The translations under genes and the position numbers were made by a program. The notes beneath the pieces are model-generated. The model was not told the origin of the DNA. It worked only from the letters and a program-made list of their open reading frames with translations, and ran no database searches. A stretch of 64,000 nucleotides of DNA from Candidatus Komeilibacteria bacterium (GTDB taxonomy: Bacteria; Patescibacteriota; Patescibacteriia; UBA1558; GWA2-36-10), in assembly GCA_018656065.1 (NCBI GenBank), contig JABHZY010000024.1, forward strand, positions 224,970-288,969, given 5' to 3'. The first letter of the stretch is position 1. Each line of letters opens with the position of its first letter. This document shows, piece by piece, positions 107-37,495 of this stretch.

Positions 107-859
107 GTGCAGCGACTAAACTTACACCACACTCCTGCTAAAGGGAGTGTACAAGGCTCGATCTTACCGATTCAAGGCACCTGGTGCCAGTCCTCTATTT
201 GGACCAAGTACTGGACCAAATGGTTGGCTGAAGTCGGCTACCAATCGTGGGTTATGGACTATCCAGTAGAAGGAACTACGTCCATCTCCAATCAAGTTGA
301 CCTCACTCACCAGGTTATCAATCAGATCGAAAACGAATTCGGCGTCAGCCTCTCTCTGTTTGGCCACTCACGTGGTGGTGCAGTTGCCCAAAAGGTAGCT
401 TCAGAAAGAGACCTGGCATCTATCGTGCTATTAGGAAGTTCGGCCCCTTGGCCGATCTGCAACATCCGCTGGCCGTTAGTATCCGAGTTCTGGCGCTACT
501 TGCCACAAATTCTCTTCTCGAGACTCTTCCGACCTAGCAATGCTGTGCTAGACCGACTGGAGTTTCACCGTTTTCCAAACGGCGAAGAGTTGATGGCAGA
601 TCTGATACCCGACTCTGGTCGGACCAGTCTGGAAATTCTGCTCAGCCTGACCAAGGTTGATCACCTGAGGTGCGATGCCCTGATCGTAGCTGGTCAGTAT
701 GACCGCATCATGCCTGTCGGTATCCAAAAAGCGCTGCATGAAAAATATGGCCGGCGCGCCGATTACCTCGAACGTCCGCATGGGCACATGCCCATGTTAG
801 AAGAGAACTCAGGCTCAACCCTGAGGGAAATCGTAGACTGGCTCAACATATGGGCCTAG
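107..859 (+). CDS. alpha/beta-fold hydrolase (GC-rich, probably acquired)
   Basis: 250-aa ORF with a GTG start behind AGGAGG. It has a GHSRGG nucleophile elbow (GxSxG) and a C-terminal GHMPMLE His motif. It is visibly far more GC-rich than its surroundings. Confidence 0.8.
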   Translation: MQRLNLHHTPAKGSVQGSILPIQGTWCQSSIWTKYWTKWLAEVGYQSWVMDYPVEGTTSISNQVDLTHQVINQIENEFGVSLSLFGHSRGGAVAQKVASERDLASIVLLGSSAPWPICNIRWPLVSEFWRYLPQILFSRLFRPSNAVLDRLEFHRFPNGEELMADLIPDSGRTSLEILLSLTKVDHLRCDALIVAGQYDRIMPVGIQKALHEKYGRRADYLERPHGHMPMLEENSGSTLREIVDWLNIWA

Positions 860-33030: not shown

Positions 33031-33930
33031 TTATTCTTCTGATTTTATCTCACAAAGTTTTCCCTCTAAGTACGGATATTCAACTATATTATCATCTATT
33101 TTAAGGTGTACTGTATGCTTCATAGGGTGAACTGCTACCACTTTAGCTGGACCAGCCCCAGTTTTTATAATATCACCTTCTTTTGGTAACTGATTTCTCT
33201 CATATTTATAAGCCTCTTCTTCAAAACGAAGGCAACATTTAAGTCTGCCACAAGGACCAGTTAATCTATCAGCTCCTCGATGACTAAGCTCTTGATTTTT
33301 AATACTATCTGGACTAACACTGCCAATAGTATTGAGCCAAGATTTACAACAAAGCGGGATACCGCAAGGACCAAGATCGCCAGTTACTTTAGCAGCATCA
33401 CGTACACCTACTTGTTGTAATCGAATTTTTTTATGATAATTTTTAACTAAATCTTTAACTAATTCTCTGAAATCAACTCTGGCACTAGATATAAAATAAA
33501 AAGTCATTCTTTTGGTATCAAAAGATTCCGACATATCTACTAACTTCATAGTCTTAAGACCATGCTTGTCTATTAATCTTTTACACTCTGTAAAAATTTT
33601 TAAAGACTCTTTTTTTTGAATTCTTAATTTATCTAAATCCTCTTCCCTTAATGGCCTGAGCATCGGTTTAACATCAGTCACTTTGTCTTGCACAAAATCA
33701 CCATTGGTTTTTTCCCCTCGACTACACTCAGAACCTTCGGCTTTATTATCCCTTGAAGGCTCCCAATCTGCCCAATCAGTCACCTGTCCAACGTCCTGGC
33801 CTAAAATAGTAGAGACCACAACACTATCACCTACTTCTACTTGAGCTCCAGCGTCATCGCTAAACTCTGGTAAGAAAAAATACTCCTTATCTAATTTATG
33901 AAATTGTACTTTAACGACTTTCATTGGCAA
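33031..33930 (-). CDS. PSP1 domain protein (RicT/YaaT-like)
   Basis: 299 aa with RMTFYFISSARVDFRELVKDL..LGPCGIPLCCKSWL. Confidence 0.8.
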   Translation of the reverse strand: MPMKVVKVQFHKLDKEYFFLPEFSDDAGAQVEVGDSVVVSTILGQDVGQVTDWADWEPSRDNKAEGSECSRGEKTNGDFVQDKVTDVKPMLRPLREEDLDKLRIQKKESLKIFTECKRLIDKHGLKTMKLVDMSESFDTKRMTFYFISSARVDFRELVKDLVKNYHKKIRLQQVGVRDAAKVTGDLGPCGIPLCCKSWLNTIGSVSPDSIKNQELSHRGADRLTGPCGRLKCCLRFEEEAYKYERNQLPKEGDIIKTGAGPAKVVAVHPMKHTVHLKIDDNIVEYPYLEGKLCEIKSEE

Positions 33931-34627
33931 CTTTAGTTCCTATATTATTTTTAGTAACTGCTTTGATAAGATTAGCTGGGCTATATTTAAATACTGTTAG
34001 ATCCATTTTATTTTCTCTTGCCATTGCAAAGGCAGCCGCATCCATTACTTTTAATTTCTTCTCTAGAGCTTCGCTATAGCTAAGTTTTTTATAAAACTTG
34101 GCATTTTTATATTTAATTGGATCTTTATCATAAACTCCTCGGACATTGGTAGCTTTGTAAATATATTCTGCACCAATCTCATATGCCCTTAATACTAATG
34201 CTGTGTCAGTTGTAAAATATGGCTTGCCTGTGCCGGCAGCAAAAATAACAATGTGTTTCTTATTCAAATAACTATTAGCACGACTAGCACTATAAGCTGA
34301 CATAGTAGCTGGAATCACAAATGGTGATAATACTTTGGCCGCTTGTTTCATTTTGCTTAGCACTGCTTGCAAGGCCATAGCATTTATCATAGTAGCAGTC
34401 ATACCAATATGATCAGCTACCTCCCTATCTATTTCCATATTTTTGACCATACGAGCGCGGAATATGTTGCCTCCGCCAAGAACAACACCAATTTGATAGC
34501 CCTGCTTAGCTAGCTTTTTAAGACTATCGGCTAACTTCATAATCTTGCCAAAATCAAGATTAGCCTCTTGATTACCTTGCTCCATTACCTCGCCGGAGAG
34601 TTTGATTACAATCCGCTTATTTTTCAT
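33911..34627 (-). CDS. pyrH: UMP kinase
   Basis: 238 aa with RIVIKLSGE and GGGNIFRA. Confidence 0.92.
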   Translation of the reverse strand: MKNKRIVIKLSGEVMEQGNQEANLDFGKIMKLADSLKKLAKQGYQIGVVLGGGNIFRARMVKNMEIDREVADHIGMTATMINAMALQAVLSKMKQAAKVLSPFVIPATMSAYSASRANSYLNKKHIVIFAAGTGKPYFTTDTALVLRAYEIGAEYIYKATNVRGVYDKDPIKYKNAKFYKKLSYSEALEKKLKVMDAAAFAMARENKMDLTVFKYSPANLIKAVTKNNIGTKVANESR

Positions 34628-34674
34628 TTTTTGATTTTAAAAATCTTATTGTTATTATGGCAAATTGATCCGAT

Positions 34675-34730
34675 AATAGCAAGACTCTAGATATGCTACT
34701 ATTGACAAAATAGCAATAATATGCTATTAT
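34675..34730 (+). promoter_or_regulatory. promoter with embedded inverted repeats
   Basis: TTGACA (34702-07), 17-nt spacer, TATTAT (34725-30). AATAGCA-6 nt-TGCTATT (34709-34728) lies inside the spacer. A second AATAGCA..TGCTACT lies at 34675-34700. Confidence 0.5.
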
Positions 34731-34788
34731 ACATTCGTTTGAAACACTAGTAAACCAAAAAATTTACTGGCATGGACTGTTCTTCAAC

Positions 34789-34929
34789 AAGGAGTAAATA
34801 ATGCCCTGGAATTGGAAATTTTACCAACCAAGATAGACAACCCCCAAACTGAACGCGCCTTCAGACAATCCTGAACTATTCCCTTCTGAAGGTGCATGAT
34901 CCAATCACGCACTCTTCAGGAGGAATACC
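34789..34929 (+). promoter_or_regulatory. 5' leader: 11-codon uORF plus two mutually exclusive helices, one covering the SD
   Basis: AAGGAG (34789-94) precedes ATG 34801..TAG 34836, encoding MPWNWKFYQPR. Segment 34885-34895 can pair either with 34855-34865 or with 34909-34920, the latter overlapping AGGAGG (34918-23). Confidence 0.45.
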
Positions 34930-35265
34930 ATGAACACCAACCGTCGTCACCAGTACGAGATGATCATCCTCATCGATCTACTGACTGAATCCTGCCCCTA
35001 CTACAATGGCTACGAAGAGTTCTGCGAAGAATGTTCAACCCTCTTCAACACTCACTACCGTGTCTGGCACTGCTACGGCTGTGATGCTATCTACGGTCTG
35101 CCCTGGGGAATCACCAGTATCAATGAACGGTCTCTCGAAGCTGCTCGTCGTCGGGCTCGTCACATCAAGCCCAAGCCTGATCACCACGAGACCAATACCC
35201 AGTTCGCCAAGCGACACGGCATTACCAAGCGTCAGGCCTCCAAGGTCCGGCAACTCCTGCGCTAG
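34930..35265 (+). CDS. GC-rich small Cys-rich protein with a basic HTH-like C-terminus
   Basis: 111 aa with a strong SD. It reads CPYYNGYEEFCEEC..HCYGC (CPx8CxxC..CxxC), then FAKRHGITKRQASKVRQLL. Confidence 0.65.
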   Translation: MNTNRRHQYEMIILIDLLTESCPYYNGYEEFCEECSTLFNTHYRVWHCYGCDAIYGLPWGITSINERSLEAARRRARHIKPKPDHHETNTQFAKRHGITKRQASKVRQLLR

Positions 35266-35286
35266 ATCCCTCGGGATCGTCTAGTC

Positions 35287-35324
35287 GCCCTACTCCTCCG
35301 GGAGTACGGGCGGCTACTTTTTTT
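35287..35324 (+). terminator. rho-independent terminator of the GC-rich islet gene
   Basis: gccctactcc/ggagta(c)gggc stem with a tccg loop. A T-run lies at 35318-24. Confidence 0.6.
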
Positions 35325-35333
35325 ATACAAAAC

Positions 35334-35361
35334 AAAAAAACCACCCGTCAGGGTGGTTTTT
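35334..35361 (-). terminator. tsf terminator (bidirectional hairpin)
   Basis: aaaaaaa-ccaccc-gtca-gggtgg-ttttt. Confidence 0.8.
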
Positions 35362-35370
35362 AAAAATAAT

Positions 35371-36144
35371 TTATAATGAATATTGTCCAAAATCCTCTAC
35401 GCTAGCATTATTTTCTTCCAAAAGCTTTTCAATAGATTTTTTATCATCTTTGACATAAGCTTGTTTAATCAAACATACCTCGGTATAGAATTTATTAACC
35501 TTACCTTCCAAAATCTTAGCAATGACTTCTTCCGGCTTGCCTTCTTTCTTTAGTTGTTCGGTATAAATTTCTTTTTCTTTTTCAATAACTTCAGATGGCA
35601 CATCTTCTGGTTTAATATATTTTGGTGCCATAGCAGTAGCATGCATGGCAATATCTTTAGCTAACTCTTCACTGCCACCTTTAAGTACTAACACGGAAGC
35701 ATTTTTATTATTTGAATGCAGATAAATACCTACTACTTCACCTTCATAAATATCAAACTTAGCTAATTGTAGATTTTCACCAATCTTTACAATCAATTCA
35801 TCCTGAATATATTTGCTAGCCCAAGTAGTAAATTCTTCTTTACCTAATTCCATTAGCTTAGCAGCTAATCCTTGAACGGCAGTTTGAAAATCTTCATTTT
35901 TGGCTACAAAATCTGTTTCACAAGCTAAAGCTACAACAGCAACTTTATTATCTTTCTTTTCAAAAGCAATAACGCCTTCTTTGACTTCTCTATCAGATTT
36001 TTTAGCGGCGATCTTTTGACCTCTTTTTCTTAAAATCTCAATTGCTTTATCTCTATCACCATCAGCCTCTTTCAATGCTTTATTAACATCGCTCATACCG
36101 GCTCCAGTGATTTGTCTAATTTCTTTAATCAATTCTAATGACAT
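35371..36144 (-). CDS. tsf: elongation factor Ts
   Basis: The protein starts MSLELIKEIRQITGAGMSDVNKALKEADGD. I trimmed the ORF-track start (36192), which would overlap rpsB. Confidence 0.92.
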   Translation of the reverse strand: MSLELIKEIRQITGAGMSDVNKALKEADGDRDKAIEILRKRGQKIAAKKSDREVKEGVIAFEKKDNKVAVVALACETDFVAKNEDFQTAVQGLAAKLMELGKEEFTTWASKYIQDELIVKIGENLQLAKFDIYEGEVVGIYLHSNNKNASVLVLKGGSEELAKDIAMHATAMAPKYIKPEDVPSEVIEKEKEIYTEQLKKEGKPEEVIAKILEGKVNKFYTEVCLIKQAYVKDDKKSIEKLLEENNASVEDFGQYSL

Positions 36145-36166
36145 TTTTATTTTTTTTAAAATATAA

Positions 36167-36847
36167 TTAAATACGTGAGCCTTTGATGGCATCAGCTATA
36201 ATATCAGTAATAACTTCAATAGATTTTATAGCATCATCATTGGCAGGAATTGGATAAGCGGCCAATTCTGGATTGACATTTGTATCAGCCATAGCGATTA
36301 CTGGAATACCCATCTTATTGGCCTCTGATACTGCGGTACCCTCTTTTTTCAAATCTACAACAAAAACTGCTTTTGGTAGATTTTTCATAGATTTAATACC
36401 ACCTACGTTTTCTGTTAATTTATTAAGTTCTTTTTTAAACTTAACTTGTTCTTTTTTGGTATACATTTCCCAAGTACCATCTTCCTCTTCTCTTTCTAAT
36501 TTTTCTAACTTTCTAGTCAACTTAACTATATTTTCAAAATTAGTAAAAGTACCTCCTAGCCAACGGCCAATGATATAAGGCATGCCACAGCTCTCAGCAG
36601 CTTCTTTAACAATAGTCTTGGCCTGTTTCTTTGATCCGATAAATAAAATAACGCCCCCGGCTTTTACAGTCTTCTCTACAAAGGCTATAGCTTCTTCTAA
36701 AGCTGTTTGAGTCTTTTGTAGATCAATAATGTGAACGCCGCTGCGTTGAGTGTGAATGTAGTAGTTGGCTTTAGGATATCTTTTTGAGGTCTTATGACCA
36801 AAATGAACACCCTTTTTCAACAACTCTTCAAGTGTTGGTAATTTCAT
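36167..36847 (-). CDS. rpsB: 30S ribosomal protein S2
   Basis: 226 aa with GVHFGHKTSKRYPKANYYI and FVVDLKKEGTAVSEANKMGIPVIAMADTN. Confidence 0.95.
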   Translation of the reverse strand: MKLPTLEELLKKGVHFGHKTSKRYPKANYYIHTQRSGVHIIDLQKTQTALEEAIAFVEKTVKAGGVILFIGSKKQAKTIVKEAAESCGMPYIIGRWLGGTFTNFENIVKLTRKLEKLEREEEDGTWEMYTKKEQVKFKKELNKLTENVGGIKSMKNLPKAVFVVDLKKEGTAVSEANKMGIPVIAMADTNVNPELAAYPIPANDDAIKSIEVITDIIADAIKGSRI

Positions 36848-37001: not shown

Positions 37002-37030
37002 TTGACAAAAATCGATTTTTTTACTTAAAT
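37002..37030 (+). promoter_or_regulatory. candidate promoter of the Cys/His-rich islet gene
   Basis: TTGACA (37002-07), 17-nt spacer, TTAAAT (37025-30). AAGGA lies 7 nt before ATG 37090. Confidence 0.4.
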
Positions 37031-37089
37031 ATACAAGTAATAATAGTTCCACCGTCCGTAACCACCCCCCTCGTCAAAAGGATAAAATC

Positions 37090-37353
37090 ATGTGCAATCC
37101 CTACCAAATTACGGAAATCTGCCATATTCGTGGCCACGGCTGCAACCTCTGCAATGGTCGCAGTCACTGTGAAGACGGTGATACTGTCTGTCCTGAAGGC
37201 CATCGCGTTGGCAGTACTTACATTGGCCTAGTCTGTCGGATTGTTCCAGAAACTGGAACCTGCACGATCTGCCAATCGGTCGTCAAGAATGGCGACCCTT
37301 GTCCCTATGGCCATATTCGTGGCCAGGGCTATCTGTGGCAACTCGCCCAGTAA
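37090..37353 (+). CDS. GC-rich Cys/His-rich mini-protein with an internal repeat
   Basis: 87 aa with 10 Cys and 5 His. It contains CNLC-x12-CPEGHRVG and CTIC-x9-CPYGHIRG, plus an N-terminal CHIRGHG. A hairpin (37374-37396) lies downstream. Confidence 0.6.
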   Translation: MCNPYQITEICHIRGHGCNLCNGRSHCEDGDTVCPEGHRVGSTYIGLVCRIVPETGTCTICQSVVKNGDPCPYGHIRGQGYLWQLAQ

Positions 37354-37495
37354 CGCTCACCAGAGCATATCGGAGCACCCCAACCCAAGGGGTGCTTCCT
37401 AACATTCTTGACATTTTATACTCAATCTGTTACCTTATTGGGGTATTAATTTTTATCTCGGATTAGATCCGAGACGGATAAATTAGAAAAAACAT

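Follow-up and report, generated by a model that had tools for sequence, protein, structure and literature searches.

A 64,000-nucleotide (nt) stretch of the genome of Candidatus Komeilibacteria bacterium (contig JABHZY010000024.1, positions 224,970 to 288,969 of the forward strand; hereafter the window) carries a small orphan gene for a protein of 111 amino acids (aa), and the leader preceding this gene raises the question of whether translation is regulated by a choice between two RNA helices and, if it is, what makes the choice. Within about 190 nt the leader comprises a short upstream open reading frame (uORF) with a Shine–Dalgarno (SD) sequence of its own and three arms, A, C and D. Arm C is able to pair either with A, leaving the SD of the gene free, or with D, in which case this SD is buried in a hairpin. 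The host belongs to the candidate phyla radiation (CPR, Patescibacteria), the members of which are uncultivated, reduced-genome episymbionts, and to our knowledge almost nothing is known about post-transcriptional regulation in these bacteria. The uORF and all three arms are conserved and the two pairings are mutually exclusive. The leader is a real, conserved element that most likely gates translation of the small orphan gene; with a probability of roughly 0.4 we read it as a kinetic, ribosome-coupled translational attenuator of the ermC/cat type. The leader family is previously undescribed and fits a known kind of regulation. Its compactness and tractability recommend it as a candidate leader-peptide switch or kinetic RNA switch of a new sort.

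Table 1. Features of the leader, its gene and the surrounding cassette (window coordinates)
Feature	Position	Strand	Basis
GC-rich cassette	34691..35333	+	gap in the alignment with the relative L012; GC; GC at third codon positions (GC3)
Putative promoter, sigma-70-type, TTGACA-17-TATTAT with TG extension	34702..34730	+	11/12 match in scan
P1, 5'-proximal hairpin, 8 bp	34747..34770	+	minimum-free-energy fold
A0, pyrimidine-rich anti-SD-like motif (UGUUCUUC), just 5' of the uORF SD	34778..34785	+	conserved block
uORF SD, AAGGAG, 6 nt before the ATG	34789..34794	+	read from the sequence
uORF, 11 codons and stop, MPWNWKFYQPR-stop (TAG at 34834-36)	34801..34836	+	read from the sequence
Arm A, anti-sequestor (GCGCCUUCAGA; gcgccttcaga)	34855..34865	+	sequence, conservation, pairing
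CU-rich anti-SD tract, pairs with GGAGGAAUA of the main ribosome-binding site	34877..34884	+	minimum-free-energy structures
Arm C, shared strand (UCUGAAGGUGC; tctgaaggtgc), SD-like	34885..34895	+	pairs with A or D
Apical stem-loop of the sequestor, UGAU-CCA-AUCA	34897..34907	+	minimum-free-energy folds
Arm D and main SD (AGGAGG, 34918-23), 3' strand of the sequestering hairpin	34909..34927	+	consensus pairs
Main open reading frame, 111 aa, orphan	34930..35265	+	protein clusters, conserved termini
Intrinsic terminator, 15-bp GC-rich stem and U7	35282..35325	+	fold energy

Two mutually exclusive helices in a conserved leader

A first-pass annotation, made from the sequence alone, had proposed both helices, and direct reading bears out the positions it gave for the uORF with its AAGGAG, for the three arms and for AGGAGG of the main ribosome-binding site. 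The A:C helix consists of 11 contiguous bp with one G.U, and C pairs with D (gcactcttcagg at 34909-20) with one bulged U (34913), in both cases as described there; A and D are indeed near-copies of each other, matching at 9/11 positions with a 1-nt insertion. The annotation understated the sequestration itself, having extended it to the first half of the SD. The minimum-free-energy helix spans 34877-34927 with 18 outer pairs and a 4-bp apical stem and buries the whole SD, upstream of the ATG at 34930. Pairing of the CU-rich tract with the SD recurs in every homologue, in a register that varies by clade. The hairpin is followed by CCATGAAC instead of a U-run, and no terminator was called within the leader; with the SD inside it and no U-run behind it, C:D is not a transcription terminator.

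The leader abounds in SD-like and anti-SD-like tracts, namely UGGAA in the uORF, the CU tract and the CUGAA copies at 34849-53 and 34871-75, and these blur the pairing predictions. Purine-rich and pyrimidine-rich tracts permit many alternative pairings, and the uORF and both helices might accordingly be taken for chance features of a GC-rich insert with no function. However, when 34837-34932 was subjected to dinucleotide shuffling, a contiguous helix of at least 10 bp with at most one G.U arose in 8 of 2000 shuffles, and none of 1000 shuffles equalled the C:D region (−25.6 kcal/mol vs −9.2 ± 2.5 in shuffles; z = −6.7); for the whole leader z = −3.3. These tests, together with invariant arms and compensatory changes across three clades that share 32–40% protein identity, essentially refute the chance reading.

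The comparison set consists of five distinct leaders from three independent clades: that of the window, that of the loci L092 and L095 (protein clusters P0003 and P0006), and that of L094 and L100 (P0004 and a variant). The protein family was searched for with phmmer against 1.8 × 10^9 representatives, by a profile search of 5.8 × 10^9 proteins and by a metagenome locus scan. Among the 5.8 × 10^9 proteins it amounts to only four clusters at 90% identity, and all homologues outside the window come from the two other Patescibacteria clades. Every one of them is preceded by a homologous leader with TTGACAAAATA, a 5' hairpin, the uORF, arms A, C and D, the SD and ACCATG. The first-pass annotation had staked its proposal on homologous leaders conserving the pairing, and the pairing is kept across them. 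Invariant columns make up 9/10 of arm A, 13/18 of the C side of the hairpin and 13/19 of its D side, against 6/35 in the spacer 5' of arm A and 0/23 in the A–C loop. Arm A is paired with C in 50/50 cells (5/5 sequences) vs 38–54% in slid controls; the two changes observed there are one-sided and both give G.U. The 17 consensus pairs of C:D are formed in 92.9% of cells and two of them are changed on both sides, one by replacement of A-U with G-C (columns 124/151 of alignment A5). In the L094 clade CUGAAGG of arm C has become CUGGAGG, so that this arm reads GGAGGUG in L094; arm D compensates (UUCAG to UCCAG), while arm A tolerates the change as U.G. The apical stem has undergone a compensatory change as well (UGAU/AUCA vs UGGU/ACCA). 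Since the helices contain G.U pairs, the RNA of the plus strand is the functional one.

Within the two close pairs of sequences there are 13 real substitutions, all of them outside the 44 arm columns (P about 0.02), and every comparison shows stronger conservation in the leader than in the coding sequence (for instance, 0.61–0.68 vs 0.55–0.60 nucleotide identity between clades). For so small a family this sequence conservation appears unusually clean. The 11 metagenome or metagenome-assembled-genome copies of the window locus have identical leaders and therefore carry no covariation information. Two other candidate start sites were rejected. A second reading frame starting at a conserved AAUGAAAG exists in L092 and L094, but it has no SD, and the window has no ATG there; an in-frame AUG just after arm C in L094 is not conserved.

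The variable spacing of the arms bears on the view that the direct and inverted GCACCTTCAG repeats are operators at the DNA level, bound by the gene product or another repressor that would form a roadblock downstream of the promoter. Three copies of a 10–11 bp motif in direct and inverted orientation, next to a gene whose product has a helix-turn-helix (HTH)-like motif, are what such a view expects. Yet the A–C spacing of 31, 37, 37 and 33 bp does not keep helical phasing, D has a 1-nt insertion relative to A, the sites lie 120–190 bp downstream of the promoter, and the compensatory and G.U changes fit RNA pairing and not DNA recognition. We find operators scarcely credible.

A metabolite-binding riboswitch with A, C and D as its expression platform would account for mutually exclusive helices that gate an SD within a conserved leader of about 190 nt. 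It would have to be a new class, as the leader matches no known family. Rfam 15 gave no match at gathering thresholds in the whole window apart from tRNAs and noise; a sensitive search of 34600-35420 yielded, as best sub-threshold matches to the leader, only noise (≤16 bits, E > 2), and nothing was found in the L092 or L094 leaders. The first-pass annotation had likewise recognised no known leader class. Conserved nucleotides, however, lie almost exclusively in the arms, the SDs and the uORF start, and the regions where an aptamer might be sought are unconserved in sequence and length (the 0/23 and 6/35 columns given above, with an A–C loop of 21–27 nt between 10-bp arms), leaving no candidate aptamer. 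RNAalifold revealed no conserved multi-stem junction in the leaders. A riboswitch is therefore very unlikely. The earlier description of the layout as that of an attenuator or riboswitch-like switch thus holds insofar as the layout is conserved in five leaders of three clades, though not for its riboswitch half.

Searches for the motif elsewhere were negative: covariance model R1 found no further copies in the window and 41 loci, and a DNA pattern scan of viral contigs for the full motif gave 0 matches. Three viral-contig matches to the A:C pattern were attributed to chance, and the covariance model rejects them. In the literature we found nothing comparable on leader peptides in Patescibacteria.

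Energetics and the choice between the helices

In all five leaders the C:D hairpin (−25 to −31 kcal/mol) is far more stable than A:C alone (−13 to −15 kcal/mol). Enforcing A:C carries a penalty of +4.5 kcal/mol in the window and of as much as +12 in the homologues, and opening of the SD at equilibrium costs 12–15 kcal/mol. The two helices are not energetically balanced, C:D winning over the A:C state by 4.5–12 kcal/mol. Owing to this difference any switch must be kinetic and co-transcriptional. An equilibrium model in which a ribosome on the uORF opens the SD was rejected, the opening cost staying at 12–15 kcal/mol. In the growing window transcript P(A:C) is predicted to be 1.0 until D is transcribed, and the A:C state lowers the cost of opening the SD–AUG region from 12–15 to 4–10 kcal/mol. 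Direct-path barriers, which are upper-bound estimates, amount to 12.5–17 kcal/mol from A:C to C:D and to 20–27 kcal/mol in reverse. Such modelled barriers are compatible with a long-lived A:C trap in which the gene is ON and an irreversible C:D state in which it is OFF.

The uORF is a putative translated frame. In all homologues a purine-rich, SD-like tract lies 5–6 nt ahead of its ATG, and the ATG and the UGG of codon 3 are invariant in the five leaders. The homologous peptides of 8–10 codons are MPWNWEFRQS, MPWNWEFH and, twice, MFWKPHQR, each followed by a stop, and only M-P/F-W-N/K is common to all. Changes include the synonymous CCC/CCT, AAT/AAC and CGG/CGA, and the indel is of 6 nt; conservation of the first codons with synonymous changes argues for selection on the peptide or the reading frame. 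Tryptophan is encoded by codon 3 in all sequences and by codon 5 in two clades, never in tandem. The suggestion that the Pro-Arg-stop ending of the window peptide is reminiscent of arrest peptides fared badly: the homologues end in QS, FH or QR before the stop.

Upstream of the uORF, hairpin P1 recurs in each of the five minimum-free-energy folds with differing stem sequences (CUAGUAAA/UUUACUGG, GUCAGAAAU/AUUUCUGAC and GCCAGAAUC/GAUUCUGGC) and probably serves as a stabiliser of the mRNA 5' end. The A0 block (UUCUUCAA(UG)AAAG / CACCUUAAUGAAAGG) is conserved.

The link between uORF and arms is most explicit in L092 and L095, where arm A is predicted to be held in the nascent RNA by AGGUGC, which overlaps the uORF stop codon or follows it directly. 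There, a ribosome on the last uORF codons lifts the predicted P(A:C) from about 0.1 to 1.0. We propose that ribosome position on the uORF may control the choice between A:C and C:D, as follows. Transcription from the putative promoter would start an mRNA with the protective hairpin P1, followed by the translated uORF of 8–11 codons. Arm A would be made next and then arm C, which A would capture in a helix of 10–11 bp (about −14 kcal/mol), so that far less structure would involve D, which is made later, the AGGAGG SD and the start codon; this would be the ON state. If A were unavailable when C emerges, or if the RNA relaxed, C:D and the pairing of the CU tract with the SD would form instead, and the resulting hairpin of −25 to −31 kcal/mol would bury the ribosome-binding site of the 111-aa frame in an essentially irreversible OFF state. 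Ribosomes translating the uORF, or pausing on it, would displace the sequences in or after the uORF that hold A and so decide whether A is free, by which means output of the protein would be tied to translation status or to a stalling signal.

Several observations weigh against such an attenuator. The C-terminal half, length and stop context of the uORF vary, and the distance from its stop to A ranges over 14–19 nt; so variable an end would be unusual for a defined arrest peptide, and the conserved UGGAA of the uORF could be an RNA element complementary to UUCC tracts and not a Trp codon. In the window A:C forms whether a ribosome is present or not. The A0 motif of L094 and L100 is a third GCACCUU copy, predicted to capture arm C in the nascent RNA, and ribosome position has little effect there. 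A 1:2 pairing of the ermC kind, with a segment at the uORF end holding A, was sought but is not uniform across the clades. At equilibrium the placement of a ribosome along the uORF leaves SD accessibility unchanged in every clade, and even in the A:C state the SD is predicted to pair with weaker, non-conserved partners. The A:C helix displays no double (compensatory) substitutions, only conservation and G.U tolerance, and the sequence support as a whole comes from only three independent clades.

Some of these observations would be expected if nothing were sensed at all. A metastable A:C would then act as an uncoupled folding timer, giving each new transcript a short translatable window before it turns into inert C:D, with low, burst-like output, while the uORF with its strong SD and P1 would only stabilise the 5' end of the mRNA. 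Stab-SD and other 5'-stabiliser elements are known to act in this way in Gram-positive bacteria. The independence of A:C from ribosome position in the nascent window RNA, the strong preference for C:D at equilibrium with sizeable predicted refolding barriers, the unconserved length and 3' half of the uORF and the presence of P1 at the 5' end in all clades are all in line with a timer. Preservation of the first uORF codons through synonymous changes is not, and in L092 and L095 arm A pairs with the region of the uORF stop in a manner that suggests a design for control by ribosomes. Constitutive damping by so heavily conserved a leader is conceivable, yet a weak SD would achieve it more economically. 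We regard a timer as doubtful, although a serious competitor of the attenuator.

The fact that equilibrium alone keeps the gene OFF also makes an opening factor attractive. In this case a small RNA or a protein, perhaps the basic product itself in an autoregulatory loop, would stabilise or open the sequestor by binding to the C:D hairpin, in which CCACGCA is invariant and nucleotides are bulged, to the duplicated GCAC(N)CUUCAG arms, or to both. The product is rich in Arg and Lys and possesses a CxxC...CxxC motif and an HTH-like C-terminus; moreover, unpaired nucleotides of the hairpin are conserved (C at 34908 and the CACGCA block), and the leader as a whole is better conserved than the coding sequence. 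Against a trans-acting factor, no partner RNA was found, the covariance model turned up no second motif copy in the window or the 41 loci, and the product has no homology to known RNA-binding autoregulators. The perfect complementarity of A to C would be left unexplained unless A:C forms too. On balance we think a trans-acting factor unlikely.

The attenuator reading has a bolder version, which we likewise put forward as improbable. In this version the M-P/F-W-N/K mini-ORF encodes an arrest peptide of a new class that senses a ligand or state, the signal being perhaps free Trp, a host-derived metabolite or a ribosome-targeting compound. A ribosome pause during transcription would then set an essentially irreversible kinetic A:C/C:D switch that governs a rapidly evolving regulator of the Zn-ribbon/HTH kind, and the GC-rich cassette, complete from promoter to terminator, would be a mobile one moving from one intergenic slot to another in AT-rich CPR genomes. 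Were the uORF truly a sensor, a deep lineage of bacteria would contribute a new arrest peptide.

The gene product, the cassette and other GC-rich islands

The 111-aa product is hydrophilic and basic, and its conserved parts are an N-terminal helix, CxxC...CxxC and the C-terminal HTH-like motif NTQFAxRHGIxxRQAxKxR, which make it appear Zn-ribbon/HTH-like by sequence. Searches of Pfam, PHROGs and Protein Data Bank sequences returned nothing significant, only weak FYVE and HTH_28 matches, and the AlphaFold2 model is poor (predicted local distance difference test, pLDDT, 57). The coding sequence evolves fast relative to the leader, with synonymous/non-synonymous codon differences of 11/19 between L092 and L095 and 4/11 between L094 and L100, and the variation is concentrated in the Cys-containing middle part. 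The leader may provide a handle on an orphan, rapidly evolving protein family. Clusters P0002 and P0005 were discarded from this family as repeat-protein artefacts, and L101 was discarded as sharing the HTH motif only and having no leader. This locus (L101 3019-3348) contains the sole distant match to the HTH motif (DYARRYGITKRQASKIRAL), in a 109-aa open reading frame (ORF) of a GC-rich, phage-like contig; a weak PHROG match of this ORF to 'late transcriptional activator' (E = 0.005) is a lead on domain function and not a test of it.

The gene, its leader and the signals around them form a GC-rich cassette of about 645 bp (boundaries approximate, ± a few nt) located between pyrH (33911-34627, minus strand) and tsf (35371-36192, minus strand). 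Promoter, 5' hairpin, uORF, switch, orphan ORF and terminator follow one another as a complete plus-strand transcription unit, so that the whole regulatory unit, with mini-ORF, competitor arm and SD-sequestering hairpin, is legible from the sequence alone. The proposed promoter retains its word TTGACAAAATA...TATG.TA.TAT in L092, L095, L094 and L100. At the other end, segment 35266-35335 folds at −30.8 kcal/mol (z = −5.5) with the terminator stem as its dominant element, and the homologous cassettes also end in analogous GC-rich terminators.

The cassette has a GC content of 50–60% vs 32% in the genome, and the 111-codon ORF a GC3 of 0.67 vs 0.13–0.29 in neighbouring host genes. In the closest available relative, L012 (PyrH 97.5% and RpsB 94.7% identical to those of the window), the tsf–pyrH spacer is only 178 nt long. 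Its flanks are alignable to the window up to about 34690 and again from the tsf terminator, and the gap of about 645 bp between them indicates a recent insertion. The ORF is carried on 17 independent metagenome contigs, and the flanks were the same as in the window in the ten places fetched, which argues against an assembly artefact; eleven small-contig copies, the P0001 variant included, were aligned. The same slot holds something else in another relative: the tsf–pyrH spacer of L013 (4830-5260) contains a different small AT-rich ORF (about 62 aa) that has a TTGACA promoter of its own and, as ribosome-binding-site motif, CCUUCAAUGAAAGG; the UUCAAUGAAAG motif is common to this spacer and to the leader family, where it lies in the ribosome-binding-site region of the uORF. 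It would seem that this slot is a hot spot at which small genes insert.

The homologous cassettes reside in different settings: beside a tyrosine recombinase gene and ftsH in L094 and L100, beside an EamA gene in L095 and beside tRNA genes, which come after the cassette, in L092. In L100 (1826-2725 and 2740-2785) and L094 (455-525) the cassette lies directly 3' of the 299-aa recombinase gene (Pfam Phage_integrase, E = 3e-39), separated from it by duplicated hairpin repeats CCCAGCTTTTCGCGAAAGGCTGGG. The recombinase and tRNA neighbours are possible hints of cassette mobility. In the P0003/P0006 clade two more GC-rich orphan ORFs (109 and 114 aa; L095 6936-7670, L092 203-547) occur directly upstream, making the cassette part of a larger GC-rich island; neither ORF has a Pfam or PHROG match.

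The cassette is an example of discrete GC-rich single-gene cassettes inserted in AT-rich CPR chromosomes. The window has three such islands of about 50% GC (53-937, 34801-35383 and 37029-37454), each with a strong promoter and a terminator, and their genes have a GC3 of 0.52–0.67 vs 0.13–0.29 in host genes. The promoters of just these three islands are marked by TTGACAAAAT, which as an exact word has no occurrence in the window other than those at 17 and 34702, and by TTGACAAAAA at 37002. The first island contains a 250-aa alpha/beta-hydrolase ORF with a GTG start (107-859, plus strand; Pfam Abhydrolase_6, E = 4e-12), the SD of which (AGCAGGAGG) can pair with CACTCCTGCT just downstream, possibly another case of SD sequestration. 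The third, between rpsB and rpmE, contains a Cys-rich ORF of 87 aa in which a repeat occurs internally as HIRGHG / HIRGQG (37090-37353, plus strand); this ORF has no Pfam or PHROG match, and a 42%-identical homologue is present at the same place in L012. At approximately 2585-2660 L012 also carries, right at the pyrH start codon, a 77-bp element that the window does not have. With terminal inverted repeats CCCGTTAGAAATT / AATTTCTAACGGG and a flanking TTCAT direct repeat it looks like a miniature inverted-repeat transposable element.

Comparison with known regulatory systems

Ribosomal-protein and other autoregulatory leaders resemble the one described here in being conserved, structured and ending in an SD-containing helix before the gene of a small basic nucleic-acid-binding protein. 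Our leader, however, displays no mimicry of a known rRNA site and no family match, and a conserved uORF with a competitor arm is not typical of such systems.

The mRNAs of type I toxins (hok, tisB, aapA1 of H. pylori) share with it several anti-SD-like, CU-rich segments (here A0, A and the CU tract) alongside SD-like ones, a very stable final fold that sequesters the SD, co-transcriptional alternatives and the dominance of kinetics over equilibrium. Their metastable structures block premature translation, whereas an early A:C would permit it. Their activation requires RNA processing together with an antisense RNA, whereas here neither an antisense RNA nor a processing site is evident, and inside the cassette there is no convincing antisense promoter/terminator unit. 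The product also differs, being a hydrophilic basic protein of 111 aa and not a small hydrophobic toxin.

The trp, his and phe leaders and tnaC offer another parallel, that of a short uORF with Trp codons upstream of alternative RNA structures. These systems control transcription through intrinsic or Rho-dependent termination, while in our case the hairpin holds the SD and no U-run comes after it. The Trp codons do not occur in tandem, and the downstream gene does not belong to amino-acid metabolism or biosynthesis. A transcription attenuator of the trp/his type was rejected on these grounds: no U-run, an SD inside the hairpin and no run of regulatory codons. TnaC is characterised by a conserved Trp/Asp pair and a Pro at the stop; both are missing here, where the C-terminus is not conserved.

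The closest likeness is to attenuators of the ermC/ermB type, including the cat-86 and cmlA leaders. There are differences: sequence similarity and an Rfam match are lacking, the gene encodes a small orphan Zn-ribbon/HTH-like protein and not a resistance determinant, the leader peptide has 8–11 aa of which only the first 3–7 residues are conserved, the host is an uncultivated CPR bacterium, and two of the three clades lack evident 1:2 pairing. Parts of the architecture are nevertheless shared. A short leader ORF has its own SD (here AAGGAG-N6-ATG and 11 codons), and the downstream SD and start are buried in a hairpin, so that C:D corresponds to segments 3:4 of ermC. An upstream segment 2, here A, pairs with segment 3 and frees the ribosome-binding site, A:C having the properties expected of the 2:3 helix. 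As in ermC, there is no terminator U-run, and control is for this reason to be regarded as translational. In the L092/L095 clade the likeness goes one step further, in that a segment at the end of the leader ORF is predicted to hold segment 2, and a ribosome positioned there would flip the switch.

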